From: a virus
Taxonomy: Duplodnaviria > Heunggongvirae > Uroviricota > Caudoviricetes
Strand: one strand, 5' to 3'
Length of the DNA stretch: 64,000 bases
Virus record (IMG/VR): IMGVR_UViG_3300033463_000003
This document shows positions 282 through 63,179 of the stretch, piece after piece (position 1 is the first letter of the stretch; each line of letters starts with the position of its first letter). The notes beneath the pieces were generated by a model. It did no database searches. It was not told the origin of the DNA and was given only the letters and a program-made list of their open reading frames with translations. A program made the position numbers and the translations under genes.

Positions 282-2459
282 ATGGCTATTTCCTATGATA
301 ATATAAAAACTGGCGTCTATGCAATTAATAGTAATAATATTTCTGTTTTTCCATGTGCTTACAGAGGCGCTAATATTAACAACAATAATCCATTTGACCC
401 AGAAGCAAAATTAAATACAGAAAGAAACTTAATTAATCTAGCTGCTCCAAAAACAAACTCCAAATATATTGAAAGCTGGAAAGATAATAAACTTCAATTT
501 GTTTTAGGTGGCTATCATTTTATTGTTGATTCAGAGGGTGGTTCTTTAGGCCCAAGTGGTACAACAATAAGATATGTTGCTATTAGATTAACTCCTGTTA
601 CTTTAATTGGCACTAAAACTACCCCTATCCTTGCAAATATTAAAAGTTTAGCTACATGTGAAAGTAATACTAATACTGCTTATACATATGTTCTTGATGA
701 AGTAAACAATGATATTTACTATTTCTACGGTTTATATTTCTTAACAAATGAGCCAACACAAGAAGATAGATATTATGACTATCTTGAATTACCAGCAAGT
801 ATGAGCTCTTGGGAAAGTCATGCAAGTAGATTTGGAATTAAATATAAAGATGTTCAAAGTAAAAAATCTGTTTGTTCTATTACTGGTGATTTAATCCAAG
901 GCAGTGAGGCCCATTCTATTGTTAGTATTTATGGTGATACTGATTCAGATATTAACGTAAATACTGCTACTGGAAAAAATTCAGTAGCATTTGGTGTTAA
1001 TACTACAGCTGGAGCAACTGGTGCATTTGCAGAGGGTAAAAATACAAATGCTAGTACTGACTATACACATGCTGAGGGTGGTTATACTTTAGTTGGTTCA
1101 GATTGAGGCCATGCTGAAGGTTTTAATACCTCAATTACAAAGCTTTCAACATCAGTTGATTATCCACATGCAGCACATACCGAAGGCCTTAATACTAAAG
1201 CACATGGTATTGGTGCACACGCTGAAGGCGGTACTGATGATGTTCCTGATAATTTACAGCCAGATGAAAATGCAGAGTTTACTATTGCTGAAGGTAACTA
1301 TTCACATGCAGAAGGCACTAAAACATATGCTAGTAATACTGCTGCACATAGTGAAGGTGATTCTACAACTGCTTCTGGCGAAGCTAGCCATGCTGAAGGT
1401 TATAGTACTAATGCTGAGGGCCCAGGATCACATGCAGAAGGCGGAAATACAATTGCCTCAAATTCATATACACATGCCGAAGGAAATAATACAGCTGCTT
1501 CTGGCTTATACTCACACGCTGAAGGTTTTTGTGATAATGCAGCTATTAAAATAGAAGGCCAAGCACAAGGACAAGCATCCCACACAGAAGGATATAATAA
1601 TAGAGCTTATGGTAACTATGCTCATGCTGAAGGTAGCTATAACAAAGCTTATACTTATGCTAGCCATGCTGAAGGTGAATCTACAATAGCCGGTGCAAGT
1701 GCAAATGATAGCAATAGCAGATATGCTCATGCAGAAGGCTTCCATACAAAAGCTATGGGACAAGCAGCTCATGCAGAGGGTGGTGATGCTACTGCTGGAT
1801 CTGGACAAACACAAAATTATACAATAGCAGCTGGTGCTTACTCACATGCTGAAGGTAATAATACAAAAGCAGATGGTACTGGTACACATGCTGAAGGGCA
1901 AAATACATTAGCAGAAGGTAATGCAGCTCACAGTGAAGGTTACACAACAATTGCTGGCTATATTAATAATGGTACACATTATGGCAACTATTCACATGCT
2001 GAAGGCTATTATACTAAGGCTCTTGGTGATGGGGCACATGCTGAAGGCGAAGGTAATGGCACTAATAAAGGAATTGCTTCTGGTAGAGCTTCTCATAGTG
2101 AAGGTTATCAAACTTTAGCATCAGGAGCTTACTCACATGCAGAAGGAAATCAAACTATAGCACAAGGTGTTTCAACCCATGTTTTTGGTGAATTTAATAT
2201 AGCTGATGAAACTGGCGGCCGTCCAAGGGGTAATAATTATAGTAGTTATGTTGAAGTTGTCGGTAATGGAACTGCTAGTAATGCTAAGAAAAATGCTAGA
2301 ACTCTTGACTGGGATGGAAATGAAATATTAGCAAATAACTTAATGGTCAAAAATCAAGTAAAATTTCATAATAAAACATTTGATTCTTATAATATGACTC
2401 CTGAAGCTACTATAGAATATGATGCAACACGACAAGTAATAAAATTTAAATTCAATTAA
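282..2459 (+). CDS. Tail fibre / YadA-head-like adhesin with SHAEG repeats, 725 aa (TGA at 1104 read as Trp)
   Basis: ORFs 282-1106 and 1755-2459 share a frame; GAT TGA GGC CAT GCT GAA GGT continues the xxHAEG repeat; RBS AAGGAG. Confidence 0.85.
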
Positions 2460-2488
2460 TTATATATAAAAAGGAAAGGTAATTTTTA

Positions 2489-5400
2489 ATGAGTCTACAA
2501 ATTTGGCTTCCATTAAATAATGATATAAAAAATTATGGCACAGACCATAATGTTGTTTTTAGCAATAGAGTTGAAGCAACATCTATTTCTGGTGGTAAAG
2601 TAACTAAAAACTGCTACTATTTTACTCCTGAGGGGCATGACCGTGGTACTGACTATGGCCTATATACTACAAACTCTGGTTCTTTAGCCACATATTTTAA
2701 TGATCACTCATGGACAATGGCTTTTTGAATTAAAACAGGTGTTAGTATACAAAGTGATGTTTTTTGTATTAGTGGTCCAGACTCAGAAAAAAACTATGAA
2801 ACAAGATGCTATATTGCTGGCGAAGCTGATGTTGGTAGATTTGTTTTTGAAGTTAAAGATGGAAACACATATAGGTACCCTAGCACAGATGATATAGCAG
2901 TTAATGACAGTAATTGGCACCATATTACTATTGCATATGACTATAATAAAAATAAATTTTATTGCTACTGTGATGGAGTTTTAAAAACGGCTCCTCAACT
3001 TACTAATGGTACATTTAATAAAAATATTACTGGCATAAGCATTGGTAGAAATTATGCTGGTAATATATGGTTTGATGGTTTCATTAATGATTTCAGAATT
3101 TATGACCATGCTTTGTCATCAGAAGAAGTACTAGAATTATCACAAGGTTTGGTTGCTCATTATTCTTTTAACTGGGAAGAGTTTTATCAACCAATTGAAT
3201 ATATTGAAAGTACTGGTACTCAATATATTGATACTGATATTAAATTTAATACAGGAAATACTTATGAATTAAGATCAAAAATAGAGTTTGATAATGTCAC
3301 TGAACCAAACCAAATTATTGGCTATGATGGTCACGCTGGAAATGGTATTGGAACATCCACTAACACTTGATGGTTAGATAATGCTGCTAGTGTTTCTTGT
3401 AGTACCAATACTATTTATGATATAATTTGGACTCGTAGTGATACTAGCTGAACAAGAACAATAAATGGAACAAGCTATTCTGGAAGTGCTCAAATTGGCT
3501 CACAAACATATAATATCCCAATTTATTTATTTGCAACACGTAAACCAGATGCAACACCAGCATATAGTATTGGCTATTGGTGCTATATGAAAATGTATTA
3601 TTGCAAACTTTATGAAAATAATACTATTGTTCGTGATTTTATTCCTGTAATAAGAAAAATAGACCACAAACCAGGACTTTTTGACTTAGTAGAAAATAAA
3701 TTCTATGGCAATGATGGTACTGGTGAATTTAAATACCCAAATTCTAATGCTGAATATGAATTTTTAGAATATATTGAATCAGGTGACCACCAATATATAG
3801 ATACTGGCTGGATACCTAATTTTGATGTTAGTTGAAAAGTTGAAGCAGTTGTAAGCATTCCAGATAATAGATATAGATATTGTATTGTATCAAATGCTAA
3901 TGCACAGACTGCTACTGCTAATGAAAAAGAAGTCAGCCTAGAAATTAATGATGCTAATAATAGTTCTGAACCAAATGTAATTTGTGATGGCCGCCCAAGA
4001 TTCTACATAAATGGTGGTGATACTCAAGGATATGGTATTGCTCTGGTTCCACCAGGTGGCTCGTCAACAATAACTAACAATAAAAAAGCTAATGTTGAGT
4101 ACTCATATAACGCATCTACACATGATTGCTATGTAAGTTACCGTAATCTTGATGGAAGTGGTGAAAGTTCAAATAGTGTATCTAAAACATTTTCTGGGCA
4201 GTCACAATCTAGCACAATGCTTTTATTCATAGATAGAAAAAAACGTTATGATGTTTTTAATCATTCTCTTAGAATATATAGCTGTAAAATAACAGAAAAC
4301 GGTAAAGTAGTTAGAGACTATGTTCCAGCAAGAAGAAAATCAGATGATAAAACTGGAATGTTTGATATGGTACATAGTGAATTTGCTAATTCAACTAGTG
4401 GTTTTACTACGCCTACTGATTACACTACACCGACTGACTATAAGTTTATTGACTATATTGAAACAAGTGGTACACAATATATTGATACCGGTTTTAATCC
4501 ATATAATAAAAACACTACTGTTGAATTAGATGCCCAAGTATTAAATGTTACTAGCTCACAAAATTTATATCAATTTTTTGGTTGTTTTGACCAAATTGTT
4601 CGTTTCCATATTGGCCTTTATAATAATGGAGCTGGTTTCCACCCAGGCATAGGAAGTGCATATGATACTAATGCTTATAACTATGATACTGACAGACATA
4701 AATTTAGTCTAATTAGTAACAGTGAAGAAAGAGCATTTTATGTAGATGGCATTTCAAAATGAACAACAACCAATACTGCTACACTACCAAATCTAAATGT
4801 GTATATTGGCGCTGGTAATTGAAGCGGAACTGCAACAAGTGATACTCACTGAGGCTATACAGGCAGTTCTAGAATTTATGGCTGTAAAATTTGGAATGAT
4901 ACTTCATTAGCTCATAATTTTATTCCAGCAATTAGGCTTAATGATAATAAACCTGGATTATATGATTTAGTTAGTAATAGCTTTAAACCAAACCTAGGTG
5001 ATGGTGAATTTGATTCACCAGCTTTATATCACCCAGTAGATTATATTGCTTCAACTGGAACACAATATATTGATACTGGATATGCTTATAATAATAGTAA
5101 TGATAATGCTAGAATTGTTGTTGATTGGTCTGCTATTGACCTATCAAATGGAAATTACTTTGAATATCGTGTTGGTGGAGCTCAAAGTGACAGTCGTTCA
5201 ATGGTTTTATATGGTACACCATCAACATCAACAGAATTAAGATTAGGTGTTGGATCAGATGTTGGTAGTACTTCAGGTGATATTGCACTTAAAGATGCCA
5301 ACAACAATGACATTAAAATACTTAAAGGCACAAGATATTTAATTGATGTTACAGCAAAAAATAAAAATATTGGTGGAACATTAAATGGAAGTACAATTAG

Positions 5401-7612
5401 CGGCACATATCCTGGAACTGTTGGTAGCACAGCAAATTATTATATATTTGCTAATAATGAAAATGGCACTGTTGGATATAATGGTAGAGTAAAAATTTAT
5501 AAATATCAATTATATGATAATGGCACTTTAGTAAGAGACTTTATTCCTGTAGTTAGAATATATGATAATAAGCCCGGCCTTTGGGAAAAAGTAGAAGGTA
5601 AATTTTATACTAACCAAGGAACAGGGGAATTTATTTGGAGTAGCTCTATTGATAGTCATGGTACAACTAGTAATGGTACATTATATGTAGATAGACAAAA
5701 GTTAACTGCTAGCTATCTTGGCTATGGAAACTGGCGCTCTGGGCTTGCTTGTAGAAATAAATATAGTAAATGCTCTACTGGTTTTACTGTCTATGATACT
5801 GTTAGTCATGTTATGGCCAACTTATGTACATCAAATAATTTTAGTGATAATAATAATGAGCTTTGAAAGTCTGGTTATGGAATTTATGCTGGTGGCAGCT
5901 CTCAGTGGATATATTATGCTGATTTTGGTGAGTGTCAGACAATAAATGATAGCAATAATAACCCAATTTCATATCAAGCTGGTGATAGACTTAAAATTAT
6001 ACTAAATAATAACAAAGTCTATTACTACAAAAATGATCAAATAATACGTACAGTAAATAATACACATGGAGATCTTTATCCTGTGCTTTTATGCACCACT
6101 GATGCTATAAATAATTACTTAGATATTGCTTTAACAACACTTCCAAGCCCAGTAGATGTAATAAAACCAATAAAAGATAATAGTGGCTATAATAATGATA
6201 TATCTGCATTTACCCCAGATTTAACAACAAGTAATGATACAGCTTTAGGAAATCAAAGCTTAGTATTTGATGAAACGAACTACCTTAAAAGTAGCTTAGA
6301 TAGCTCATTTATTAAAGATAAGCTTACAACAAATATTTTAGTTTATAAAAATGATTGAAGCAATAATGTTAGTGAACAAATTATAGCTTGCTCAAAAGAT
6401 AATACAATTGGAGCAACCTATAATGGTTGAAGCTTTGCTATTGGTTCCAATTCAGCAAGTGAAACAGGAACTGGCACATATTTAAAATTTGTAGTTGATG
6501 CAGGAGCTGCTCATGCACAAGCAGCAAAACTAGACATATCTAGCTTAACATCAGGCTGGCATATGTTTACAGGAACATATGATTCTTTTATGGGCACAGG
6601 CAACACAACAGGAAATTCATATGTTAAATTATATATTGATGGAAATCTTGCCGATACCGATATAATATCAAGTGCTCCAGCAATGCCAATTAACTATGTT
6701 TCATCACATAATGTAACTATTGGTGCTAGATATAATAGAACTAATTATACAGTTACTGATTACTTTAATGGAAAAATTGCAGATGTTAAAATTTGGGCAA
6801 CAACTTTATCAGCAGAAGATATTAAAGACCTATATGAAACAAAAGCAAAGATATATAATAACAATATTTTTGCTGCTAATAATATAAAAGCTATTGACCA
6901 AGAGGCTATTAAAACATTTGTACCTGAACGTATAGCTGGTCATGGTAGTGGTGTAGTACTTAGTAAGCTTGGTGAAAACTGATATGAAGTGCTTAAACCT
7001 GCTAACCTTAAATTTGGTGGCATTCAAATTCCTTGAAGATACCCTGATAGAGATGACGGAACACCTATTAACTTTACTGCTGGCCATTATTATAAGCTAA
7101 GTTTTGAAACATTACAAAGCTATAGCAGCGATTACTCAGAGATATGTAAATATATTCGTGGACACTCTAATGGTTTTACTACTATTGGAATTTATATTGA
7201 TGGACAAAAAGCTATAAATGATCTTTGGCATGTTACTAATAACTTAAACCCAACAGGTATTAATTTAAAACTTGAACGTTTATATGCAAGATGGAAACAC
7301 TATGATGTATACTTATTATATAATGCTAATTCGCCGGATGGTAATAATGGTCTATATATTCAACCAGAAAGAGGTAATACAGAAGCTCCTGCAAGTAATA
7401 CCCAGTATAGAAATATAGAACTTACTGACTATGGAACTACTGAGCCAATATTTAAAGAGTCAGAAGTAGCAACAATAACTTCTGAGCTTAAAGTAGATAA
7501 TGTTGCTTCACTACAATGAATTCAAACAACTACAGAAGGTTCACCAAATAAAAATTCAGTATATGTTGGTAAGAATAGAACATTAGTAGCCGCAGATATA
7601 AAAGAAATATAA
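2489..7612 (+). CDS. Large LamG/concanavalin-like repeat virion protein, 1707 aa, many TGA-Trp
   Basis: Seven track fragments (2489, 3113, 3587, 4217, 5201, 6083, 6563) are in one frame, each broken at TGA; LamG motifs WTMAF(W)IK, WHHITI, INDFRIYDHAL, IADVKIWATTL; ends TAA 7610. Confidence 0.85.
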
Positions 7613-9336: not shown

Positions 9337-9339
9337 TGA

Positions 9340-10345
9340 AAAATAAGCTGAAAATGGCCAAATTAGGAAAATTAGTTTTTTTGCTAGGTCAAATTTGGAA
9401 AGTTTCATTTTCACCTTATGGCTAATTAGGGAAATTTGGAAATTTAGGTTTTTACATAATGTATATGTAGCTTAACACACTATATAGATCTGAAATTAGT
9501 GAAATTTGGAAAATTTAGAATTTCACTAATTTTTTTATTAAAGCTAATTTGGGAAATTTCATTATGCTACATTTACCTAAAAACTTATCAAATGTAGTTT
9601 AATAAAAAAGCAAACCTGGAATCAGCCAAATTTGCCTAATTTTCGGAATTTCGTAAATTTGCTTATTTTGGGGCTTTTTATTCCTGGTAAGATAAAATAC
9701 CTACTATGTGGCTAAAATGCGATGTGGCTTGTTTTTGGAGCTTTATTTCACGTTTTAACAACATATGTATAATTGCATTTTTACCTTGACCACGAAACTG
9801 TCCAAATTTGCCCAATTTCGTTTCCATCTTACTTACATTATACTATACAATTTTTTATCTGTAAACTTTTAATAATTTAATAATTTAATGATTTAATAAT
9901 TTATTAAAAAATAGCTAAAAAAACTATTTACAACTATTTACTTTTGTGGTATAATAAAGGTATAATGGGGAGTGTTTTTTTATAAAAAAAACGACTTTAA
10001 TAAATTAATAATTTAATGTTTTAATAATTTAATAAACTAATAAATTAATAATTCATTAAAACTACTAAATACTATATTACCTACCAGAACTAAATAATTC
10101 AATTTTTTTTAGTAATTATAGTTGAACGGAGTTCAACATGCCGTTAGGCATTATTTAGTTATACTTTTCTTTTTATATAATTTTTCTTTTACAAGAAAAA
10201 TAAATGATAAAAGCTTTATATATAAAAGCATAGTAATAATAAAGAAGCTTTATATGTGCGCGCGCGTATATATTTTAATGTTTTTAATGTTTTATTAGAA
10301 AAATAATTCAATAAATCATTAAATTATTAAAAAATTAACAATTTT
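9340..10345. repeat. 1 kb non-coding region with AAATTTGG/CCAAATTT and TAATAATTTAA repeats and hairpins; candidate origin or terminus region
   Basis: No ORF; tandem imperfect repeats 9869-9905 and 9997-10052; hairpins 9492-9531 and 10121-10151. Confidence 0.5.
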
Positions 10346-10408: not shown

Positions 10409-10720
10409 ATGGCGAAAGAATCACAAACAAATCAATGAGTTGCAATTAAATGCCCACATTGCGGTTATGAGTATATTCCAGCAGAGATCTTCTTTCCAGA
10501 TCAATTGCTAGGTAATGCAAAAACAGTAATTAAAGATGCATTAGGTAAAATTCTTTATGTGGAATGAAAACCTGATGAAGAACCAGCATTAACAGAAAAA
10601 TGGGTTTGCGATAATTGTGGGGAAACATTTAAAGTAACAGCTAGCTTTTCATTTAAAACAGAAAAGGAAGTTGCAGAGTTAGATTTTAAGAACCAATCAG
10701 TAAGCTTGTTAGATGATTAA
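10409..10720 (+). CDS. Zn-ribbon protein, 103 aa, two TGA-Trp (absent from track)
   Basis: RBS AGGAG; CPHC and CDNC pairs; open only if TGA=Trp. Confidence 0.75.
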
Positions 10721-10756
10721 CACTTACTTTTTTCTTTTTTAGCGAGGTATTAGCAT

Positions 10757-16793: not shown

Positions 16794-16816
16794 AAAGATA
16801 AAAATGAGGAAATTTT

Positions 16817-49866: not shown

Positions 49867-49941
49867 CTTAAAATTCATAACAAAAACCTCCAATTTGGGG
49901 GTTTTTTATTGTATAATAATATAGTAGTGAGGTATAAACTT

Positions 49942-50979
49942 ATGACAAAAAATCCATTAACAGGCATTGCAAACTTCTATGAACAATGTGTAAAAGAGCA
50001 AGATGCAAAAGGTTTTTCTGAACTTTATAAAAAAGCAACTAAGCTTTTATTTAAAAGAATTAAAAAAGAATTAAACTTAGATTTACATTTTGAAGATGTT
50101 CAATATTTAGATGGCTATTTTATTTTTGGACATGGAACAAACTCAGTTGTGCATTTTCATATTAAAGAAGCACCTGGTTGGAAAGGTGGCATTTGGTGGA
50201 GCCCAATTGCAACTGAAGAGACAAAAGATAAAAAGAACCCAACTTATGAGACTGATAAATTAGACTGTGATTTATTTTTCCAATATGAGGAAGAGATAGA
50301 TAAGTTTAAACCATCTGCCTCTACATTTGGTGGTAGTTTTGATTTTTACTTTGAAGATGGCTGTTTTGATAGTGGATTTATGAATGCTTATGAAGATTTA
50401 CAATTTATTATTAAAGAACCCTATTTAGCATTTTATAGAGAAATGCACTATGCCAACTTTAACCATGAATATGTAAGTAGAGAGTCAGCAAAAAGATACT
50501 GGAATAGACACTGGAAAGCTAGAGCTGAAGAAAAAGCTAGAGACAAACTAAATGTTAAAGCTATGTATGAAACTGTTAAATATATTATTAGACCTATGGT
50601 TGAAGATGGCGATGCATTTATTTATGACAGAGGTAGTTGTATTTCACCAAGATATGAAATTGTTATTAAGAATATAAAACTTGCTGATGGAAAACCATTA
50701 GTTGATAAAGAAGGCTGTTATGGACTCTTTGGATTGGGCGACTACCCAGATAAAAAGAATGATGAAAAACTCTGGAAGAAAACTGAAAAAGAATGTGCAA
50801 AACGTGATAAATGTGATTTTTATTTTGATAATCAATTCTCAGATAGCTGCATAATTAGAAATACTGCTGGCTATAATAAGTGGCTAAAAGAAGCTATTCA
50901 AGAGAATGCTGCTTTATTCTATAGAAAAGAAGATAAAACAATATTTGATGGTGAAGTAAAATCTCGTTGGGAAGACTAA
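49942..50979 (+). CDS. Hypothetical protein
   Basis: RBS GAGGT; start corrected. Confidence 0.75.
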   Translation: MTKNPLTGIANFYEQCVKEQDAKGFSELYKKATKLLFKRIKKELNLDLHFEDVQYLDGYFIFGHGTNSVVHFHIKEAPGWKGGIWWSPIATEETKDKKNPTYETDKLDCDLFFQYEEEIDKFKPSASTFGGSFDFYFEDGCFDSGFMNAYEDLQFIIKEPYLAFYREMHYANFNHEYVSRESAKRYWNRHWKARAEEKARDKLNVKAMYETVKYIIRPMVEDGDAFIYDRGSCISPRYEIVIKNIKLADGKPLVDKEGCYGLFGLGDYPDKKNDEKLWKKTEKECAKRDKCDFYFDNQFSDSCIIRNTAGYNKWLKEAIQENAALFYRKEDKTIFDGEVKSRWED

Positions 50980-50980
50980 A

Positions 50981-52474: not shown

Positions 52475-52490
52475 TATTGTATAATATAAT

Positions 52491-53618
52491 ATGGAAAAAG
52501 AAAAGATTTTTATTAACCACATTGATAAATACGACCCAATGCAAAATATTAATTTTATAGAAGAGGATCAAAAGAAGTTCTTAGAAGCTTTAGCAAACCC
52601 AGCTGAGCCAAACAAAGCTCTTAAAGATTTGATGTCTCCTATGTATAATATGATTGCTGATGAAGATGAATTGCATTGGTTTTTTGATCATGTATTAGCA
52701 GCTCCAGCAGTTAATGAAAGTTATTCTGCTGTTTTTGTTAGTCGTCATAAAAAGCTCACAAAAGAAGAACAAGAAGAAATTGGTCTTACAAGAAAAGAAG
52801 CAGAATTTTTAGCAACTCAAACATTTAGAGTTAAGGGTTTCAAAAATGCAGAAACTTGGGATGAAGATAATGCTTGGACTTTTGATAATTTTTTAAAGAG
52901 AGTCAGAAGATTTAATGTAGACAAATATGCTTATACTACTTCTAAAGGCGAGCCAATTCCTACAAAAACTCTAGCAGTTATTTTTTATGTAAACCCTTGT
53001 GATGATACTAAAGTTGTTAGAGAATTTGTTAATAAGTATTTAGATACTCAACAAGCAGTTGCAAAAGGGCTTTTATCAGGACATACCTCAACAGATTTAA
53101 TTCAACAATATCAGTGGTATGGAAATGCTGAGTCTACAATTAAGCATTTAAAAGCTAACCAAAAAGGAACTAAATATTGGATGGACTTTGATATCGATGT
53201 TCCTGCTTGGTTTAAAAATGCTCACTTAGAAAAAGTTGGAGTGCATGATTATGCTCATAATGATGCTTGGCAAGGTAAAAGTGGATATGAATCTTATATG
53301 AGATTTTATCTTAAATTAAAAGAAGAATTAAATAATACTTTTGGTAAAGGTAACTATGTTATTATTGATACAAGTGGTGGTTATCATGTTCTAGTTAAGA
53401 CTTCTGTTATTAAATCAAACCCTCATGATTTCTGTAAAAAGGTTGAGACTATCTACAAAGAAGGTTTAAAATTAGGTTTTTCAGAATATTTAGATGAAAA
53501 AGGTAATTGTAAATTTGAATGTATTGTTAATGATTCTCAAATTCCAGGATTACCTCTTCCAGGTACTTACCAATATAATAGACCTGTTACAGTTCTTAAT
53601 AAGGAGGACTTTGAATAA
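52491..53618 (+). CDS. Archaeo-eukaryotic primase (PrimPol)-like protein
   Basis: MDFDID motif I, TSGGYH motif II, LPLPGT. Confidence 0.6.
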   Translation: MEKEKIFINHIDKYDPMQNINFIEEDQKKFLEALANPAEPNKALKDLMSPMYNMIADEDELHWFFDHVLAAPAVNESYSAVFVSRHKKLTKEEQEEIGLTRKEAEFLATQTFRVKGFKNAETWDEDNAWTFDNFLKRVRRFNVDKYAYTTSKGEPIPTKTLAVIFYVNPCDDTKVVREFVNKYLDTQQAVAKGLLSGHTSTDLIQQYQWYGNAESTIKHLKANQKGTKYWMDFDIDVPAWFKNAHLEKVGVHDYAHNDAWQGKSGYESYMRFYLKLKEELNNTFGKGNYVIIDTSGGYHVLVKTSVIKSNPHDFCKKVETIYKEGLKLGFSEYLDEKGNCKFECIVNDSQIPGLPLPGTYQYNRPVTVLNKEDFE

Positions 53619-53818
53619 TGGAGAAACAAAAAGTTGAAAGCTTAATTATTAATAATGAAACTATTAAACTGCCCTTTCCAGTAGAAATTATACCTTATTG
53701 CGACAACTCAGGAACTATTGGTAGTATACAACATACATATGTTATTCAAATGACACAAGTAGTAGTAGAGCTTATTAAAGGTTTTATGGAAAGAATGGAT
53801 AAGGGAGATTTTAAATAA
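53618..53818 (+). CDS. Hypothetical protein
   Basis: Coupled start. Confidence 0.6.
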   Translation: MEKQKVESLIINNETIKLPFPVEIIPYCDNSGTIGSIQHTYVIQMTQVVVELIKGFMERMDKGDFK

Positions 53819-54219
53819 TGAATATTACTTGGATTATTGCTTTATTAGTGTTTATGATATTTGCCCATCTTGCAGATGATTATTACTTACAAGGTTGGCT
53901 TGCTTCTGCTAAACAAAAAAAGTGGTGGGAGAAAAATGCTCCAGATAATCTATATAAAAATGATTATCTTATGGCTTTATTATGTCATGCTCTTTCTTGG
54001 TCTATTATGACATTCTTACCTATTCTTATTTACAGTTTATGTAATAATATAAATTTAAATTGGTTTTATTTAGCAATTCCAATTAATCTAGCTATTCATG
54101 CAGTAGTGGATGATTTAAAAGCTAATAAACTTAAAATAAATTTAGTAATTGATCAGAGTATTCATTTTATTCAAATTATTATTACATGGATTACTTTTAT
54201 ACTTATTTATTATAACTAA
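53818..54219 (+). CDS. DUF3307-like membrane protein
   Basis: H..DDY.LQ...A..K, H..VD..K, DQ..H. Confidence 0.75.
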   Translation: MNITWIIALLVFMIFAHLADDYYLQGWLASAKQKKWWEKNAPDNLYKNDYLMALLCHALSWSIMTFLPILIYSLCNNINLNWFYLAIPINLAIHAVVDDLKANKLKINLVIDQSIHFIQIIITWITFILIYYN

Positions 54220-54233
54220 GGAGATTTTGAATA

Positions 54234-56452
54234 ATGCAAGAAAATAATGTTAAAGTTCATTCTGAATTGTCTATCCCATTTGGCACGCTTAGCTGGATAG
54301 CTTGGGTAGTTTTTATGATTATGGATTATGGCTGTCATATGGACTGGATTACAAATGCTAATAATGCAGTTAAAGCTGGCGGGCATTTCTGGACCTGGTT
54401 TCCATTCTGGCTTCCATTTGCTTTATTTGGAGTGCTTTTAATCTTTTCAGCAATTGTATTTGTAATTGCTATTACTATAGATAATAATTAGGAGAGATTT
54501 ATGAGTAGATTTAAAGTTGGACAAAAAGTTTATTTTTATCAAATTACTGGAGAATATTTAGGAACAATTATTGAAGGTACTATTAAAAAAATAGTTAAAG
54601 ACTTAGGTACCGGAGAAGTAACCTATTCTTTAAATATTCCATCTCATCCTCTTTGGCTTTGGAATTATAATGCAGAGCATTTAGTAGAGCTTAAGGAAGA
54701 AAATCTCTATTCAAGCAGAAAAAAGATTGAAAAAGAATATAAAGATGAAATTGTTTATAATACTTTAAAAGAAAAAATAGATAGATTACAATCTGTTTTA
54801 TTTGATGTAAAAACTGAGCTTCAAAAAGATATCCATAAAGATTTTACTGGAATGACTTTAAATATTACGGGTGAAAAAGCTTTTAGTACTATTTGTCTTA
54901 ATTCAGAAGATGTAGTTATTTCAGGTCTTGGCTCTGTTAAAGAAAAAGTAGAAGAGCTTGAAAAAGAAATTAAAGCTATTAAGAAAAAAATTAAACCAAA
55001 AACTAAAAAGCCAGTAGTCAAAAAAGAAGAAAAAACTGAAGAAGAAATTACTTTAGATAAAGCTGAGGAAACAAAATAATGCAAGATATTGTTATTAATT
55101 TTTCAATGCTTGAAAAAACTCTATCAAAAGTAGTTGAAAAAAGCTATGGTCATATGGGAGGAGCTTATTTAGTTATTGAAGAAATTAGAATTCAAACTGA
55201 AGAAATTGACCCAGCTATAAAAGATAATTTTAATTTTGATTATATTATCGTTGGCAGATACGGCGTAGAAGATAAAAATAAAGATATTCATTTTGAGTTA
55301 TTTGCAAACTCAGCCTGGGATTATAATTTCTTAGCAGGTTATTTTGCAAGAATTATTGATGAAAAAGACGAAAATGAGTAGAGTAAAAGCACCTAATACA
55401 GATCATTCATACTTTAGAGCTGCAGAGAGATGTGGCTGGAGCCGAAAAAAAGCTCGTGAAATGATGAAAGAAGCTCAAAGAAGGGGAAAAGCTTATGCTA
55501 ATATAAAAAACCCCGAAATAAGCAAATTTATAGCTATTAAACAAGGCAATCAGAGTAGACGAGTTAAATATTATATGGGCTATGTTTTTGTTTTTGCTTC
55601 TACTAGTACAAGATGTATAACTGTGTATCCACTTCCTAAGGGATTACTTGAGGAAAATGAAGAAAATGTTTCTAATAATGTATTATAAATACAGAGGTAG
55701 TTGTTATGGATACTTTAGAAATATTTAAGAATGAATTTTTTATTAGTTTGCAGCGAGAACTTGAGGCCAAGCAAGAATATCTAGCTGGGGTCTTGAACCC
55801 AAATGAATATTTAATTTGTAAAGTAGAAATTGATTTGTTGCAAAAAGTAATAGATAGATATGTTCATTATTTAGAGGAAAAGAGACATGTCAGAGAAGAA
55901 ACCAGTAATAGCAAGTAAAGATAAATTAGCTGATTTAATTATTATTTTAGAAAATGATTTACCTAAACTTCAGTATGATGAAAGTTTCCAATATCATGAA
56001 CCTTCTTATTATAATTATGTAACCTATTATGAAGAACTAGTTGAGACTTTATTAGGTCTTGGTGGAAAAGATAGCTTAAATTTATTTGGAGCTTATTTAG
56101 TTGGATTATTAGCTTATCAAGTAATGGAATTAAAAACTCCACTTTATATGGTAGTTCAAATGATTATTGATGAGCTTAAAAATAAAATTAATTGGTTTGA
56201 AGGAACAACTACTAAAAAACCTGCAGAAGCTGAAGAAAAAGAAGATGATAAAAAATTTGATGCCTAGGAGTAGATATGCCAAAACAACATTTTGAAGATA
56301 ATTATTATTTTATTACAGATGACTTAGGAAATGAAATTTTTAGAGTTTCTTTAGATGAATCAGTTGGCGGAGACCAGGTAGTAATCTCAACTCCAAATGA
56401 AGTATATGCAGGCCCAATTTCACTTATTTCATTTAGTTCAGAGCTAAAATAA
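54234..56452 (+). other. Operon of hypothetical genes (54234-54491 membrane, 54501-55079, 55079-55381, 55374-55688, 55706-55918, 55887-56267, 56276-56452)
   Basis: Coupled ORFs with RBSs. Confidence 0.7.
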
Positions 56453-56486
56453 TGTATAATATATTGTAGATTTACGAATCTACCTA

Positions 56487-56777
56487 AGGGGCGTAAGTTA
56501 TGTAGTAGACCCGCGGTCTTCAACCTCGAAAGTTGCTAACTGACGAAACTGGTGCCTTATGGTGGAAACATTATAAGTGTAGGTGATGATATCGGTGAAC
56601 CCTGTCAAATGGGAATACCGAGGGAATGAGAAATCAGCCCGTAGAGAGTAGATAATCACCCAGCTAAACAGAAATGCATGCTGAAGATGTACTCCAGACC
56701 ACAAAACGGAAGTGTAGTGAAAGCTATAGTGGTAAGCAAAACCGGGAAACAGCGTGCAAGCCGCTGCACCCCTGCCA
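56487..56777 (+). tRNA. tRNA-Trp(UCA), UGA-decoding, split by an intron (exons 56487-56520 and 56737-56777)
   Basis: Spliced 75 nt: acceptor AGGGGCG/CACCCCT, discriminator G, CCA; anticodon arm CGGT-CTTCAAA-ACCG; T arm CAGCG-TGCAAGC-CGCTG; body resembles bacterial tRNA-Trp. Confidence 0.85.
56521..56736 (+). mobile_element. Compact group I intron, 216 nt, no ORF
   Basis: P3 GGTGAT/ATCACC, P4 TCGGT/ACCGA, R GTAGAGAGTA, S AAGATGTACTCC (P7 GAGTA/TACTC), exon ends in U, intron ends in G. Confidence 0.85.
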
Positions 56778-56783: not shown

Positions 56784-56815
56784 GCAGCACAAAATAATAC
56801 ATTGTGCTGCTTTTT
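56784..56815 (+). terminator. Terminator after tRNA-Trp
   Basis: GCAGCACAA...TTGTGCTGC plus TTTTT. Confidence 0.8.
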
Positions 56816-56849
56816 ATTTGCTAAATTAAAGTGAAAGGATATTTTGTTT

Positions 56850-56999
56850 ATGCAGAAAAAAGAAGTTAAGTTAGAAGTTAGAGTTACACAAGATACATAT
56901 GAAAAGCTTAAGGCTTTAGCAATAGCAGATGAGAGCTCTTGTAGTGCTGTAGTTAGAAAAGCTATTAAAAAGCTTTTAGAAGGCTTGGAGGCAAAGTAG
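56850..56999 (+). CDS. Ribbon-helix-helix (CopG-like) protein, 49 aa
   Basis: LEVRV....YEKLKALA......SAVVRKAI; late motif and RBS. Confidence 0.7.
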   Translation: MQKKEVKLEVRVTQDTYEKLKALAIADESSCSAVVRKAIKKLLEGLEAK

Positions 57000-57000
57000 T

Positions 57001-57144
57001 ATGAGTAAGTTCTTAAAAGTGTTAGAGTCAATATTTGTTGGTATTCTTGCTATTCTCGGGGCTATTTGTATCTCACCTTTAATTATTATTTATTTGCTTA
57101 TTCATTTACCAGTAATAGCAATTTCAGACATTTGGAGTGAGTAA
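57001..57144 (+). CDS. 47-aa hydrophobic peptide
   Basis: RBS GGAGG, operonic. Confidence 0.55.
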   Translation: MSKFLKVLESIFVGILAILGAICISPLIIIYLLIHLPVIAISDIWSE

Positions 57145-57145
57145 T

Positions 57146-58048
57146 ATGGTTAATTTTGATATAGATTTAGTAGTCCCATTTGTGGATAATACTGATCCTG
57201 TTTGAAGACAAACTTATTTAGATTTTTGTGCATTAAATAATGAATTTGCCAGGATTCAAGAAATGTTAGGCGCAAGATTTGACGATCCAGGTTTCTTTGA
57301 ATACAGTTTAAAGTTAATAGATAAATTTATGCCTTGGATAAGAAATATTTATTTAATTGTTTCAAATCCTGAACAGGTTCCAAGTTATATAAATAAAGAA
57401 AAAACAAAAATAGTTTTACATAAAGATATTATTCCTAAAGAATATTTACCAACTTTTAACTCGACAACAATTGAAATGTTTATTCCTAATATAGAAGGCT
57501 TATCTGAACATTTTATTTATACTAATGATGATATGTATCCAGTAGCACCTCTATCTAAAGAAGATTTTTTTACTGAAGATGGAAAAATAAAAATGAGTTT
57601 TTCAGGAAGAGATATTAGGCACAATCATAAACAATTTAGACTTGTTTGCTTAAATTGTTTTCAACATGTTGCAGAAGCTTTAGGATATAAACATGATGAG
57701 TTTACTTATTTAAAGCCAAATCATTCAATGACTCCGATGATTAAGGCTCATTGCGTGGACTGTCTAAAGAGACTAGAACCTCATATTTATAGAAATATTT
57801 GAGCTTTTAGAACTGAAACTCAACATAATCAATATATTTACCCTCTTTATGAATATTTAACAAATAATAGACTTGATAGCCCAATTAAGTTCTTATATAC
57901 TTCACTTAAACATCCAGGTGAAGAATTAGTTTTTGTTATTACTTCAGGCAATTATCAAATTATCTGTTTAAATGATGTGAGTGTCCCTGATAGGACAATC
58001 CTACCGATAGACCAAATAAAACAAGCATTTGAACAGCTCTTAAAATAA
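57146..58048 (+). CDS. Stealth-family sugar-phosphotransferase, 300 aa (TGA at 57203, 57800)
   Basis: CR1 IDLVVPFVDNTDPV(W), CR2 MPWIRNI...LPTFNS..IE...GLSEHFIY.NDD, CR4 ICLND. Confidence 0.85.
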
Positions 58049-58114: not shown

Positions 58115-58357
58115 ATGGAAGACATTAATGGTCTAATTTTAGCTGCAGAAAAAGAGAGAGCAGCCTTACAAGAAAAGCTTATAAATTTGAGAAAAACTAA
58201 GGTAAATGAGGCCACAGAGGCTGATAAACTTAATAAGCTAATAAATAAGTCAGAATACAAAATTAGGCTTCTAGATAAGCAAATCTATGAGCTTTGCGAG
58301 GCAGCTATTGATGCAGCTTTACTTGCTGATAGTGACTCGTCTCATTATTGGTTTTAA
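58115..58357 (+). CDS. Coiled-coil hypothetical protein
   Basis: Late motif and RBS. Confidence 0.65.
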   Translation: MEDINGLILAAEKERAALQEKLINLRKTKVNEATEADKLNKLINKSEYKIRLLDKQIYELCEAAIDAALLADSDSSHYWF

Positions 58358-58611: not shown

Positions 58612-60609
58612 ATGATTAAATTCAGAGGAACAGATTTCAATTCAAACAATTCAACAAATGCACATCAAATTTTAATTGCTAGACATTATCTTTTAGCTGT
58701 GCCACAAGAAGCTTCAGAACTTACAAAAGTTAGAACTGCATATTTTAATGCTTATCTTTTATCTAACTTTGGTATTGTAGTTGATAAACCACAACTTTTA
58801 ACTGATACTCATATTAAAGAAATTACTGAACTCTATAAATTAGATGTTCCAGCTTCATTTTACTCAAATCCACAAGATATGAAGTACTTTACAAAAGCTG
58901 AACTTTTAATTGAACAATTAGTTTCTTATTTCTTAGTTGAAACAGGAACTGGTATTTATTCACGCCCAGAAATTTTTGAAAAAGATTTACCAGAATATAA
59001 AACTGGTGAAGAAATCAAACTTCGTGAATTTAAGATTGTTTTTGCTGATGAAGCAGAAGTTATTTTAACTGATTTAGCAAAAGCTTATTCAGAATACAAG
59101 CGTCCTTGGTCTTTAGACGAAACAATTGAATTCGTCTGGCTTTTTGACCATGGCTATTACAAAGACTTTGATATTCTTTGTGGTGATAATGCTATTACAA
59201 TGCTTGAAAGAGATATTAATTTTGCACGTTTCTTATTTAAAAAAGATTTAGTCAAGATTTCTATCACTCGTTGTGGTGAAAATTCTAAACTTGTCTTAGA
59301 TAGCACAACTAAAGATTTAATTAGAGGTGCTTTACCACTTGTTAAAGATTGTCCAATGACTAAGAAACAAGCTAAGTATTTTAATACTCTTGTTAATAAA
59401 GTTGGTGCACAAGGCAAGGTTAAATTAGCTGATAATTCTAAATCTCCTTATGCAAGAGCTCAAGCAGCTTTAGATAAAGGTGATGTTTTAGGTGCAGCCA
59501 AAATTTATGCTTCTAATGGTTCTCTTTTAGAAAGAAATCTTAAAATGTTAGTTTCAAGGGCTGACCCACAAACAGCTTTAGATATTTTAGGCTTACTTCC
59601 AGCTAAAAACCCACTTGTTCTTTTCCAAACAATGTCAACTTTAATGTCTGATGATGGAAATGCAAGAACATTTACTTTTACTAAGAATAAATTAGTTAAA
59701 AAACATATTGAAACAGAATATGAAACAACTTGGAGAAAATCTAAGTTGAATGAAGCTACCAGAAAGCTTATTCACGATGCTTGCTTTACTAAGATTGAAG
59801 AAGGTTATAGAGCCCTACCATCTTTAGGCAAAGTTTACATTGCCCCAGAATTCTTCAAAGTTGGCGTTCCTGTTAATACTTCAGCTACTGGAAAAGGCAT
59901 TGATGTCCTACCAGTTTCTTCAAGACTTCCTGTTACAACAAATAAAGTTCGTACTTTTGTTCATTGGAAAGATGCCTTTGATATTGATGCTTCTTTAATT
60001 TTTGTTCATGAAGATAATAGTTTAAGCTATATGTATTTTGGTAATTACTGGGATAAACCATTTGATAATGCAGTTTATTTCTCAGGCGACTGTCGTGCTA
60101 AAAATGGTACTGAATATTATGATATTGATTTAGATAAAGTTCGTGCTAGAGGTATCAAATATGTTATTCAAACCTTCCATGGTTTCTGTTCAAGCTTAAA
60201 TAGCGGTGAAATTTTCTGTGGTTATCAAAATAAAGAAAACTTCAATACAAAAGCTTGGGACCCAAAGAACATTGAATTAAAAATTCATGTTAAAGGTGAT
60301 ACTCGTGCTTTTATGGCATTTGCTTTAGATTTAACAACTAATGAAGTAGTTATTTTAAATCAACTTATTGAAGATGAATTTAATGTTGTTCGTGGTAGTA
60401 ATTTTAGCACAATTGCTAAGTTATTGAATCCAGCACAACTTGAATTAAATGCAGGTTTAATTGCAAGCTATCGTGGAGAAACAGTTGAAAATCCAGAAGA
60501 AGCCGATGTTGTTTTTGCTAGCAGCTATAACCCAACAGAAGCTCAAAAAGTCATTAGACCATTTGATATTGAGAAGATTGTAGCCATTGCAAATGGCCAA
60601 AATCTTTAA
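58612..60609 (+). CDS. Helical (ROT/TROVE-like) plus C-terminal TerD-domain protein
   Basis: VRTFVHW...DIDAS...FSGD....GTEYYDIDL TerD-like segment; G.L.R.L..L helical region. Confidence 0.6.
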   Translation: MIKFRGTDFNSNNSTNAHQILIARHYLLAVPQEASELTKVRTAYFNAYLLSNFGIVVDKPQLLTDTHIKEITELYKLDVPASFYSNPQDMKYFTKAELLIEQLVSYFLVETGTGIYSRPEIFEKDLPEYKTGEEIKLREFKIVFADEAEVILTDLAKAYSEYKRPWSLDETIEFVWLFDHGYYKDFDILCGDNAITMLERDINFARFLFKKDLVKISITRCGENSKLVLDSTTKDLIRGALPLVKDCPMTKKQAKYFNTLVNKVGAQGKVKLADNSKSPYARAQAALDKGDVLGAAKIYASNGSLLERNLKMLVSRADPQTALDILGLLPAKNPLVLFQTMSTLMSDDGNARTFTFTKNKLVKKHIETEYETTWRKSKLNEATRKLIHDACFTKIEEGYRALPSLGKVYIAPEFFKVGVPVNTSATGKGIDVLPVSSRLPVTTNKVRTFVHWKDAFDIDASLIFVHEDNSLSYMYFGNYWDKPFDNAVYFSGDCRAKNGTEYYDIDLDKVRARGIKYVIQTFHGFCSSLNSGEIFCGYQNKENFNTKAWDPKNIELKIHVKGDTRAFMAFALDLTTNEVVILNQLIEDEFNVVRGSNFSTIAKLLNPAQLELNAGLIASYRGETVENPEEADVVFASSYNPTEAQKVIRPFDIEKIVAIANGQNL

Positions 60610-60964
60610 TAAATTGATAAATTAATAATTTATTAAAATTTATTCGCTAAATTAAATATCAAGCCTTGTACGTAAGGCGTGCTAATGTATGCCACTGTCG
60701 ACAAAATCTTCCTGCTACTTTCCACGATTAAAAAACCCAAGTCGACAAAAAATCTTATGTTAGAATAGTAAAGTGGTCATAAGACGAACAACTCTATTAA
60801 CAGCAGATTTATTCTGAGTTCTGGTCAGGATACTAAATAATCTGCTGTTTTTCTTTTGCTATAAATTATTTACATTTGCTAAATTATTTGATATAGCTGT
60901 GGCTGTTATTTAGGGTATGATATACTAATTTAGCTGGCTAGGTTTATCAGTGAGGATTTTTATT

Positions 60965-61870
60965 ATGGCTGATATGACTTATACCGGTTGGAAGAAATGA
61001 AATCCAACTTCTGATGAGTGGTGAGCACTCTATACTGAAGGGAGAGTACCATTTGAATTAAAAGAAAATGAGTATTTAATAGTAAAAGCCGAAGATAATA
61101 TAACAACATTCTACTGTTGTGAAAATGGTGGCTTAAGAAAATTTACAGGCGGGTCAATTAAAACTGTTAAAGATTTGACTCCAGTTCCATTAGAACAGCC
61201 TAAGCAAGAAGAAACTAAAAAAACTTCTACAAGGAAATATTCTAAGGGAAAAAGCATAGTTATTACCCCAAGAAATGAAGAGCAAGTTTGTGCTTTTGAT
61301 TTAATGAAAGACCCAACAAAAACTATTAAATTATTAACAGGAACTTGGGGAACTGGTAAAACAATGATTTTAGTATCTGCTGCGCTTGAGGCATTAAAAC
61401 AAGGCAGATTTGATAGAATTGTCTGGATTAGAAATAATGTAGATGTTAAAGATACTAAAGATTTAGGTGCTTTACCTGGCGAAGTAATAGATAAATTACT
61501 TCCATTCTTAGGACCTTTTATAGACCATGCTGGTGAACATAGTGTCAGAACTATGTTAGATAAGGGAACTCTTGTTGTCGAACCTCTTCAATCTCTTAGA
61601 GGCAGAAACTTCGACAATACATTAATTATGTGCTCTGAAGCAGAAAACCTCACAAAAGAACATATACAGCTCATTATTGCCCGTGCTGCAGAAGGATCAG
61701 AGGTTTGGTTTGATGCAGATAATAGGCAAAGAGATAAAGTTTCATTTGAAAAATCGAAAGGCATTGAAACACTTATAGAGCGTCTTGCAGGACAAAAATT
61801 ATTTGGTTATGTGCATTTAATTAAGTCTGAGCGCTCAAAAACTGCTGCTTTGGCAGACTTATTAAATTAA
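60965..61870 (+). CDS. phoH: PhoH-family ATPase, 301 aa (two N-terminal TGA-Trp)
   Basis: PRNEEQ, GTWGTGKT, LGALPG, LRGRNF, EAEN, Q.D, RS. Confidence 0.88.
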
Positions 61871-61886
61871 AAGGAGAGTAGCGAAG

Positions 61887-62522
61887 ATGTCTCTAGTAGT
61901 TGCGATTAAACAAAAGAATAGGATTGTGCTTGGTGCAGACAAGCAAATTAGTACTGGCGATAGTAAAAATCATACCAGTACTAAGATTTGGCCTGTCTAT
62001 GATTTAGAAGGTGCAATTATGGGCTCAGTAGGTTCCGCTCGTGCTTCACAAATTATTCAATATGCTAATGTAGTTGATAAGAATAATTTACAAGTAGAGC
62101 CAACTACTGATTTTGTTGTTTGTTCTTTAGTTCCAACAATTGCTCAAACATTAAAAGCTAATGGTATTGTAGTTGAACCTGGTGAAAATGGTTTATGTGA
62201 TTTAATGCCAAATGCTTTCATTTTTGCCTATAGAGATAAAGCATGGATGATTTGGAATGACTTAAGCGTCTCTGAAATTGAGGATTATTTTGCAATAGGT
62301 TCAGGCAGTGATGTTGCTTGTGGAGCTTTATATGCGACAAAAGAAAAGGACCCATTTGAAAGAGTTGTTACAGCTATAGATGCTGCAGCTGAATCCACTT
62401 TATTTGTTGATGATGGCATAGATGTTTTAGTTACAGAAGAGCACAAGGATGATGAAAAATTATTAGCAAAAGCTTTAGGAATTGAAATTGAAAAAGAAAA
62501 AGCTAAGAAACTTGCTAAATAA
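61887..62522 (+). CDS. HslV/proteasome-beta-like Ntn hydrolase
   Basis: (M)SLVVAI...LGAD.QIS....K, YFAIGSGS. Confidence 0.7.
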   Translation: MSLVVAIKQKNRIVLGADKQISTGDSKNHTSTKIWPVYDLEGAIMGSVGSARASQIIQYANVVDKNNLQVEPTTDFVVCSLVPTIAQTLKANGIVVEPGENGLCDLMPNAFIFAYRDKAWMIWNDLSVSEIEDYFAIGSGSDVACGALYATKEKDPFERVVTAIDAAAESTLFVDDGIDVLVTEEHKDDEKLLAKALGIEIEKEKAKKLAK

Positions 62523-62585
62523 TTAAGATAAATTCCTGGGTGCTCAAAATCCCAGGAATTTTTTATATCTATTGTATAATATATT

Positions 62586-63179
62586 ATGGAAAAGTTTACT
62601 GTTAGTTATTGAAAAAAAAGTTATTATCATATTGCTCATTGGATTTTTAGAAGAATGGAGAAAGAATGTTTAGAGTTTTTCCATGATACTATAGAAGACT
62701 GGCAATATATAGTTGAAAAATACCATGACTTTGAAGCAGAACTTTATGAAAAGTATTTTAATAAACATAAAGTAGTTCCATTTGAAGTATATCAAGAGCT
62801 TTGTAATCAATATATTCATCAAGCAAAAGAAGATAACAAAAAACAAGCTATTGAATTCTTTATGACAGTTTATAAAGATTATCCAGTAGAATTTAAGCCT
62901 CATACAGATTATTTAAAGCCTGCTACTAAGGAAGAAATTGAACAAGCTAGAAAAGATTTTAGTTCTGTTAAAGAAGAAATTTATGGAAAAACTAGAGTTC
63001 ATACTCATACCTTCTCAGATGGTGCTCAAGTTTTAGACTATAGAGGCTTAAGATTAATCTTAGATAATGAGTGGGATAATGCTTGGATTAAAGATGAAAC
63101 AGGAAAAGTTCATTATTTTCAATTAATTTGGGACTGGGATTTTCCAATAGATAATTATATTGCCTATCATATTTTATAA
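62586..63179 (+). CDS. Hypothetical protein (start 62586 requires TGA=Trp; alternative 62655)
   Basis: ATG 5 nt after TGTATAAT, in frame. Confidence 0.65.

Follow-up and report, generated by a model that had tools for sequence, protein, structure and literature searches.

Why does TGA interrupt some genes of a phage at sites where tryptophan (Trp) is expected, and leave most of its other genes untouched? The question is raised by a 64,000-nucleotide stretch of a Caudoviricetes virus (IMG/VR record IMGVR_UViG_3300033463_000003), referred to here in its full length as the window. Nearly all genes of the window lie on the + strand, its GC content is ~32%, and its recognizable genes are phage-like: nrdD, an nrdG-like gene, an SNF2 helicase, PhoH, a GIY-YIG homing endonuclease, a DNA ligase, a CCA-adding enzyme, peptide deformylase, a Stealth phosphotransferase, an EcoRI-type methylase, and a 1707-amino-acid (aa) LamG protein. 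An earlier reading made from the letters alone (the sequence-only reading) had proposed that TGA encodes Trp and that its use depends on expression class, with early genes legible to a host that decodes UGA poorly and late genes locked until a phage tRNA is made. We confirmed that TGA-to-Trp recoding in this phage is partitioned by promoter class.

The DNA sequencing runs containing the window were bovine gut metagenomes. Its nrdD has 542 relatives in IMG/VR, and two of the contigs closest to the window were examined whole: G1 (146.5 kb, nrdD identity 88%) and G2 (237 kb, rated complete, nrdD identity 83%). Megablast of 25 kb of the window against GenBank phages returned zero matches, as did a search of IMG/VR with an exact 44-mer from the window, and no relatives of the cca protein were found in IMG/VR. 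Gene calling relied on a codon-usage model that gave TGA and TGG a score of zero, so that the caller was blind to Trp. Each gene was assigned to a transcription unit by its nearest intergenic promoter, using an automatic version of this procedure for G1 and G2. Throughout, counts written as x/y or x:y give TGA codons against TGG codons. Called in this way, the window contains 100 genes with 45 TGA and 243 TGG codons.

Sequence comparisons indicate that TGA means Trp in this phage. As claimed from the letters, TGA splits nrdD (16817-18976), the SNF2 gene (10757-12463), and PhoH (60965-61870), each of which is whole under code 4 only; fragments of the LamG gene and of others are joined by code 4 as well. 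Coding density, proposed earlier as a check, pointed the same way: coverage of the + strand of the window by open reading frames (ORFs) was 0.756 with code 11 and 0.851 with code 4, the corresponding values for G2 were 0.658 and 0.891, and opening TAG or TAA instead raised coverage far less. The stops of all 100 called window genes are TAA or TAG, and none requires TGA as a stop; about two genes (24073 and 38266) possibly end at TGA. With respect to the amino acid, the nrdD TGA at codon 246 aligned opposite a Trp in PDB 9d3x, and the same column in 80 related loci held Tyr (56), Trp (13), Phe (7), TGA (2), and Gly encoded by GGA (1). TGA codons of the relatives stood opposite a window Trp in 16 of 20 cases, and window TGA codons stood opposite TGA, TGG, TAT, or TTT in orthologs and never opposite GGN. 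The TGA at codon 20 of the Stealth gene aligned with a Phe of CpsY. Domains continue unbroken across TGA in nrdD, SNF2, PhoH, and Stealth.

Promoters of the window were sorted into three classes. Class S (TTTACA-N17-TGnTATAAT) is a near-consensus sigma-70 promoter with an extended -10 element, and it recurs ahead of almost every gene cassette at 20-35 kb and ahead of a tRNA array. Class M (TTGTATAAT) consists of a -10 element without a -35 box and often lies merely 5-8 nt upstream of an ATG. Class L is defined by the motif GCTAAATTA, usually preceded by a T-run. The + strand carries 13 copies of this motif and the - strand a single one, with 2.6 expected over both strands. All 13 of the + strand copies are intergenic, i.e., within the 14.7% of the window that is non-coding, at a median of 77 nt from the next start. 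G1 and G2 carry the same three promoter motifs with the same strand bias. In G2, L motifs lie directly upstream of several virion-region genes, a region that includes the head protease (2/1) and the tail sheath (3/3), and genes for DNA polymerase (0/13), a clamp-loader-like ATPase, and trpS are in M units. From promoter type and gene content, S would be early, M middle, and L late.

Two side observations concern these promoters. The TTGTATAAT promoters at 42300-42324, 46925-46947, and 62570-62588 stand 5-8 nt ahead of ATG without a ribosome-binding site, so the first gene of several M units would be translated from a leaderless mRNA. Also, a copy of GCTAAATTA at 34267-34275 lies within the early block, and no gene was called between it and the next S promoter.

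Use of TGA differed sharply between promoter classes. The ratio of TGA to TGG was 38:64 in the L units of the window versus 7:179 in all other units (Fisher P = 2e-13). At the gene level, TGA was present in 13 of 19 L genes versus 6 of 62 others (P = 1e-6). Shuffling of the class labels in the window gave P < 5e-5, and the partition persisted when the giant LamG gene was removed (P = 2e-10). The same split was found in both relatives, with 88:178 in L units versus 27:300 in the rest of G1 (P = 2e-14) and 358:106 versus 43:341 in G2 (P = 1e-89). Recounting bore out the genes that had been picked by eye as TGA-rich, at 2489-7612 (13/19), 40251-40835 (4/0), and 41957-42163 (5/0). The internal use of TGG claimed for the early genes was also found, since 20223-34915 holds 1 TGA and 76 TGG codons with the TGA 9 codons from the ORF end, as was that claimed for 46945-56452 (def, ligase, and cca; 0/47). 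The claim that genes behind GCTAAATTA are TGA-rich was true of them as a class but failed for 13744-15411 (0/4) and 58115-58357 (0/1).

Composition is not the cause of this bias, because other codon pairs are A-ending in every class. Among A/G-ending pairs (Lys, Glu, Gln, Leu [TTR], and Arg [AGR]), the A-ending fraction was 0.71-0.97 in every class, whereas the TGA fraction among Trp codons was 0.33-0.77 in L but 0.01-0.13 in S and M. In the window, 37% of the Trp codons of L genes are TGA. A genome-wide code 4 of the Mycoplasma/Spiroplasma type would lead one to expect TGA to be common in all classes, which is not what we saw. Counts for class S in the three phages were 1/73, 1/35, and 1/57, each TGA falling within the final 9 codons of its ORF, and no internal TGA occurred among 162 early-class Trp codons. 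More generally, TGA lay in the final 15 codons in 16 of 77 cases in S and M genes versus 21 of 484 in L genes (P = 4e-6). The three S-class TGAs, one per phage, are probably real stops. In the window it belongs to an early gene (24073-24339, +) in which the sole TGA (24307-24309) overlaps the next ATG (24306) as ATGA, after AAGGAG; read-through at this codon would lengthen the product by 9 residues. Such an overlap is the usual form of stop/start coupling, and with the standard code this TGA would probably terminate the gene. The earliest genes thus seem to avoid sense TGA yet occasionally still terminate at TGA. As the sequence-only reading had anticipated, the early class, whose sigma-70 genes lack internal TGA, is readable by the standard code.

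The proposed scheme also called for a phage tRNA able to read UGA, and the window contains a candidate. A tRNA(UCA) gene occupies 56487-56777 in a TGA-free unit behind a -10-only promoter. The unit comprises, all on the + strand, the TGTATAAT promoter (class M, 56453) with a leader hairpin (56453-56486), exon 1 ending in U34 (56487-56520), an insert of 216 nt whose helices follow the group I order and which ends in G (56521-56736), exon 2 with C35, A36, an odd T loop, G73, and an encoded CCA (56737-56777), and a terminator hairpin (56786-56812). It thus stands alone, from M promoter and leader hairpin through tRNA to terminator, and the next L promoter follows at 56820. The tRNA bears Trp-type identity marks (A1-U72 and G73). 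When run on the window, ARAGORN called four ordinary tRNAs at its end and did not call tRNA(UCA), and its intron search likewise missed the split tRNA.

The two relatives offered different versions of this gene. G2 encodes a canonical, uninterrupted 75-nt tRNA(UCA) that has A1-U72 and G73; its gene immediately follows an M promoter and lies in a TGA-free unit. A trpS gene (TIGR00233, 317 bits against a cut-off of 177) lies 2.5 kb downstream at 232345-233430, also in a TGA-free unit; tblastn found no copy of trpS in the window or G1. The canonical G2-type tRNA(UCA) gene is absent from G1 and the window. Instead, these two have in common a 291-nt stretch of 89% identity, the ends of which form a tRNA after removal of 216 nt. 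The pattern of the insert core matched only G1 in IMG/VR, and a scan of metagenomes for the core recovered eight more homologs of the window gene in contigs. We compared nine complete copies, window and G1 included, in one alignment (A1). They represent three exon types with a single split site, GGTCTT|CAACC ... G|CAA, between U34 and C35. With the insert taken out, ARAGORN called tRNA(tca) in 7 of the 9.

Both the tRNA part of the split gene and its insert show covariation. In the alignment, the acceptor, anticodon, and T stems together with nine insert helices were 96.9% paired, and 27 of 61 pairs changed on both sides; none of 500 shuffles reached the observed level, and slid controls gave at most 3. 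The exon stems covary across the insert. Within the insert, the helices follow the order P2, P3, P4, P5, P6, P7, P3', P8, P7', P9, which is the group I order; P7, P8, and P9 covary, and P3, P4, and P6 are invariant. The U before the 5' junction and the G at the last insert base are kept in all nine copies, and one register alone gives both. However, Rfam model RF00028 found no match on the window (at the gathering threshold or at E <= 10), on five homologous loci (E <= 1), or on G1 and G2 (E <= 1), although it scored above cut-off in two control genomes, and by eye no convincing P1 helix or internal guide sequence was seen in the alignment. For these two reasons we call the insert only group-I-like. 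It appears to be a group-I-like intron that would be removed by splicing. Since the insert cuts the anticodon, the tRNA would be unable to decode until it is removed. The presence of at least three tRNA(UCA) exon types in rumen-type metagenomes, with the intron at one site, suggests that the intron is kept and is not an accident, and no intron-less allele of this tRNA(UCA) was seen in the DNA contigs of four gut runs.

Several observations were made on the wider intron family. In four bovine and other gut runs, assembly contigs end at both insert borders (56516-56750). Other contigs of those runs hold diverged insert cores, one of which is then followed by a different tRNA 3' half, and the intron family seems to be present in several tRNA genes of the gut community. 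Two intron copies (L114:694-1093 and L124:400-799) carry ~110 nt of extra sequence in the P6 loop, which appears too short for a protein gene. On another related contig, a match to the c-di-GMP-I-GGC riboswitch aptamer (L110:1051-1126; 46 bits, below the gathering threshold of 59; E 1.4e-8) lies ~120 nt downstream of the split tRNA(UCA). One could further propose that the code switch is timed by RNA splicing, through the group-I-like intron that cuts, in its anticodon, what would be the sole UGA-reading tRNA of this phage lineage; we think this rather unlikely. If it were true, full-length late proteins would appear only after the transcript self-splices, and the supply of guanosine nucleotide or a phage factor could set a second timer on top of promoter class.

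Indirect evidence suggests that the host is probably a standard-code member of the Bacillota, a Clostridia-type bacterium. On the side of a standard code are the early class without internal TGA despite strong A-ending pressure (roughly 80-95% in other NNR codon families), the probable TGA stops in class S, the phage tRNA(UCA), and trpS in G2. The closest cellular homologs of FNT, a transporter encoded in the window, come from Clostridia/Oscillospiraceae and other Bacillota metagenome-assembled genomes (MAGs), and from no others. The base after TGA is also informative. Known termination contexts in Escherichia coli imply that competition with release factor 2 (RF2) would select against T after a sense TGA. 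T was the next base after a fraction of 0.153 of sense TGA codons, compared with 0.23 for TGG, 0.187 for other A-ending codons, and 0.46 for real stops. This avoidance of a following T fits competition with RF2. The Thomasclavelia phages TR-TP1/2 were considered as a separate clue to the host and set aside: they have only nrdD and nrdG in common with the window (65.7% identity) and therefore carry little information.

We consider it quite probable that a standard-code host, a phage suppressor tRNA, and a partition of TGA by promoter class that arose from constraint and drift together account for this pattern. The phage would be a large, T4-like one from the cattle gut, infecting a standard-code host of Clostridia type. 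Its S genes and most of its M genes, including the tRNA gene itself, def, ligase, and cca, would be without internal TGA and therefore translatable by the unmodified host. Once the phage tRNA(UCA) is made, UGA would be read as Trp. The L genes, of virion-type and accessory function, would give no full-length protein before the suppressor is present; because a single TGA blocks the full-length protein without a suppressor, they would in effect be locked. AT pressure would turn TGG into TGA where the suppressor is already available, and selection would purge TGA elsewhere and in the most abundant protein. We favor constraint and drift as the cause of the pattern, with the lock on late proteins as its consequence. 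The order of the classes in time, the host code, and the splicing of the tRNA are parts of this explanation that we infer.

Some observations weigh against this explanation. None of the RNA sequencing runs checked for the phage contains it. Class L is not a pure virion-gene class, because nrdD, PhoH, and FNT are located behind L motifs, and three genes behind -10-only promoters (10409, SNF2, and 62586) carry TGA. Among TGA-rich neighbors, the gene for the major head protein of G2 is 0/4, which has a chance of ~0.003 at 77% TGA; this shows that TGA use within the late class is also shaped by expression level, and that decoding TGA is costly where a protein is made in the largest amount. In the tRNA(UCA) of the window, C6-A67 and G27-G43 are mismatched and the T loop is unusual, and even with the insert removed ARAGORN called neither it nor the copy on contig L117, which has identical exons. 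Another suppressor may lie outside the window. Finally, the FNT matches may be phage contigs that were binned into MAGs.

Could the host itself read TGA as Trp, in a Mycoplasma-type code 4, with the bias a matter of expression level or of tRNA supply alone? The AT-rich genome does not need TGA as a stop, and, in line with a model of efficiency alone, TGA is avoided in the gene for the most abundant G2 virion protein. Yet such a host would leave unexplained why none of the 162 early-class Trp codons is an internal TGA when other codons are 0.71-0.97 A-ending, why the ATGA overlap at 24306 and two further C-terminal TGAs look like working stops, and why the phages bring their own tRNA(UCA) and G2 also a trpS; moreover, the nearest homologs are in Clostridia, not Mycoplasmatota. 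We regard a code-4 host as very improbable. It is harder still to credit that TGA encodes Gly, through code 25 of an Absconditabacteria/Gracilibacteria-type host, or that the TGAs are real stops in decaying genes. Hosts of that type do occur in rumen communities, and the single GGA among the 80 codons at nrdD column 246 would fit Gly. However, the codons aligned with TGA are TGG, TGA, TAT/TAC, and TTT/TTC, not GGN, the suppressor bears identity marks of the Trp type, and a trpS gene is present in G2. A residue other than Trp, such as Gly, was the outcome that would have spoken against the sequence-only reading; in our sequence comparison, ortholog codons were Trp, aromatic, or TGA, and a Gly codon never stood at a window TGA. 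Decay, for its part, is at odds with the intact domains across TGA and with the rise in ORF coverage of G2 under code 4.

A different alternative concerns why TGA is where it is. Single TGAs near the N terminus had looked like gates, and one can picture a purpose-built lock in which selection sets TGA, often near the N terminus, against early production of late or harmful proteins. The TGAs at FNT codon 8 and at codon 9 of gene 62586 did turn out to be real codons, being TGG in relatives, but enrichment near gene starts was weak. In the window, 5 of 45 TGA codons versus 6 of 243 TGG codons fall in the first 10 codons (odds ratio [OR] 4.9, P = 0.017), and a similar enrichment was found in G1 (OR 4.0, P = 0.003). 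The N-terminal TGA of PhoH is kept as TGA in all three phages, and the homing endonuclease and its two neighbors are TGA-rich, in parallel to Agate phages (bioRxiv 10.1101/2021.08.26.457843). On the other hand, the complete relative G2 has no enrichment in the first 10 codons (OR 1.1), the enrichment inside class L is significant in no genome, and start-codon miscalls raise N-terminal counts. Class L of G2 is 77% TGA, near the A-ending share of other codon pairs, as unconstrained drift would produce, and TGA and TGG interchange freely between relatives. Passive tolerance, with TGA accumulating by drift wherever a suppressor already exists, accounts for the pattern no less well than a lock does. 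A purpose-built lock would be compatible with constraint and drift in a standard-code host, but we find it doubtful.

The units discussed so far are embedded in a longer series, all on the + strand. At the left end, a GCTAAATTA motif (205-213) lies ahead of gene 282-2459 and the LamG gene (2489-7612), a unit of 14/22; the 1707-aa Laminin_G_3 protein, which accounts for 13/19, is probably a fibre or adhesin. The -10-only promoter unit at 10409-12463 is an exception to the partition, with a 103-aa gene (2/1) and the SNF2 helicase (1/3). An L motif with a 555-aa gene follows (13700-15411); this is the L-class gene without TGA noted above (0/4). The next L unit (16507-20152; 2/10) contains a small ORF, nrdD with its TGA at codon 246, the FNT transporter with its TGA at codon 8, and the nrdG-like gene. 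The early block (20170-34915) then holds ~38 short genes in cassettes, each behind a class S promoter. Beyond it, an L motif lies directly ahead of a 497-aa gene (38670-40177; 1/8) with TGA at codon 8, and no start codon occurs within 157 codons downstream of that TGA. The L unit at 40236-42163 comprises a 194-aa gene (4/0), the GIY-YIG homing endonuclease (2/2), and a 68-aa gene (5/0). Thus, in 40251-42163 the GIY-YIG gene is flanked by two small genes in which every Trp is TGA, and G2 has an ortholog for the last one only.

The right half of the window continues with a -10-only promoter (TTGTATAAT) 5 nt ahead of an ATG and two genes that include the EcoRI-type methylase (42300-43804; 0/12), and then an L unit of four genes without known function (44490-46881; 6/7). 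Most L-class accessory genes of the window (38684, 40251, 44953, and 46030) had no match in Pfam, PHROG, or NCBIfam and no ortholog in G1 or G2. The long M unit (46925-56452; 0/47) encodes peptide deformylase, an ATP-dependent DNA ligase, the CCA-adding enzyme, and others. After the tRNA(UCA) unit comes an L unit with two small genes and the Stealth_CR2 phosphotransferase (2/1) (56820-58048), and later another (60878-62522) with PhoH (2/5) and a 211-aa gene (0/3). The TGA at PhoH codon 12 is TGA in both relatives too. A -10-only promoter 5 nt ahead of ATG precedes a 197-aa gene (62570-63179; 1/6) with TGA at codon 9, opposite TGG in relative L002. The window closes at 63187-63996 with two S-type promoters and the start of the tRNA array (Ile-UAU, Gln-UUG, Gln-CUG, and Leu-UAA), in which tRNA(UCA) is absent.

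Three other regions deserve mention. A stretch of 370 nt without genes (9337-9705) contains many GGAAA(T)TT(T)GG-like words in both orientations and could be an iteron field or replication origin. At 9927-9990 and 13604-13690, two S-type promoters each run directly into GGGGAGTG and a hairpin that has a T-run; either place resembles the source of a very short transcript or a decoy made of promoter and terminator. Gene 58612-60609, preceded by a promoter and a small structured leader, encodes a TGA-free 665-aa protein with a weak match to the MXAN_6230/SCO0854 RING-domain family (NF041916, 61 bits, far below cut-off).

These results have practical consequences for annotation, since the default code breaks nrdD, SNF2, PhoH, the fibre, and other genes, and code 4 is needed. 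With three promoter classes and near all-or-none use of TGA, the phage is among the cleanest examples of a proposed mid-infection code switch, and the parts that change the code (the tRNA and, in a relative, trpS) are located in standard-code units. Given a host, the switch model is directly testable, and the split suppressor is the part worth following.

The idea of a code switch is itself already published, and the phage described here fits that model. Borges et al. described TGA-recoded Agate and Jade gut phages, some of them from cattle, in which recoding is found in structural and lysis modules dispersed over the genome and replication genes are standard-code or variable, and they proposed a code switch during infection (bioRxiv 10.1101/2021.08.26.457843). 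Those phages encode suppressor tRNAs, two Jade genomes have trpS and release factor 1 (RF1), and an intron endonuclease is recoded (bioRxiv 10.1101/2021.08.26.457843). By shared traits, not by clade placement, our phage resembles them: it is a gut phage with TGA as Trp, a suppressor tRNA, and a recoded homing endonuclease. It differs in that the partition is resolved by three promoter classes and not by gene function, the earliest class probably still has TGA stops, the major head protein is encoded without TGA, and the suppressor gene is split by an intron; also, an RF1 (RF-1 family) gene was sought in G1 and G2 and not found. TAG-recoded crAss-like and Lak phages (code 15) likewise recode structural and lysis genes of the late stage and encode their own suppressor tRNA, and they infect standard-code hosts, as our phage probably does. 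In crAss-like phages, metaproteomics has confirmed the recoding (PMC9523058). These phages differ in codon (TAG), amino acid (Gln), and host phylum (Bacteroidota).

For the split suppressor, the closest comparison within tRNA genes is with bacterial introns. Group I introns are known in the anticodon loops of bacterial tRNAs, such as cyanobacterial tRNA-Leu(UAA) and Azoarcus tRNA-Ile, and the insert site between positions 34 and 35 is also that of the tRNA-Leu(UAA) intron. The element here is like them in its anticodon-loop position, its length of ~200 nt, the U before the 5' junction, the last G, and the order of core helices. It is unlike them in that RF00028 gave no match, P1 and the guide were not found, and the gene it interrupts is a phage stop-codon suppressor. 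At the RNA level, the nearest parallel is with Theta (HDV-like) ribozymes, which adjoin suppressor tRNAs of recoded gut phages and may act in a late-stage switch (bioRxiv 10.1101/2023.06.13.544163). Both are elements of catalytic-RNA type tied to the maturation of a phage suppressor tRNA, but Theta ribozymes cut the 3' trailer outside the tRNA, whereas the element here lies inside the anticodon. TGA suppressors were detected in 35% of code-4 genomes, and non-canonical tRNAs were suspected (bioRxiv 10.1101/2021.08.26.457843); an intron through the anticodon would be one concrete reason for suppressors to escape tRNA finders in many recoded phages. Introns in the tRNAs of recoded jumbo phages are mentioned, but not described further, in a 2026 survey (PMC13037316). 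Our literature search turned up no account of a group I-type intron within a suppressor tRNA, which is not proof of absence. Compared with these systems, the intron in the suppressor anticodon is the one feature of this phage that goes beyond published descriptions.

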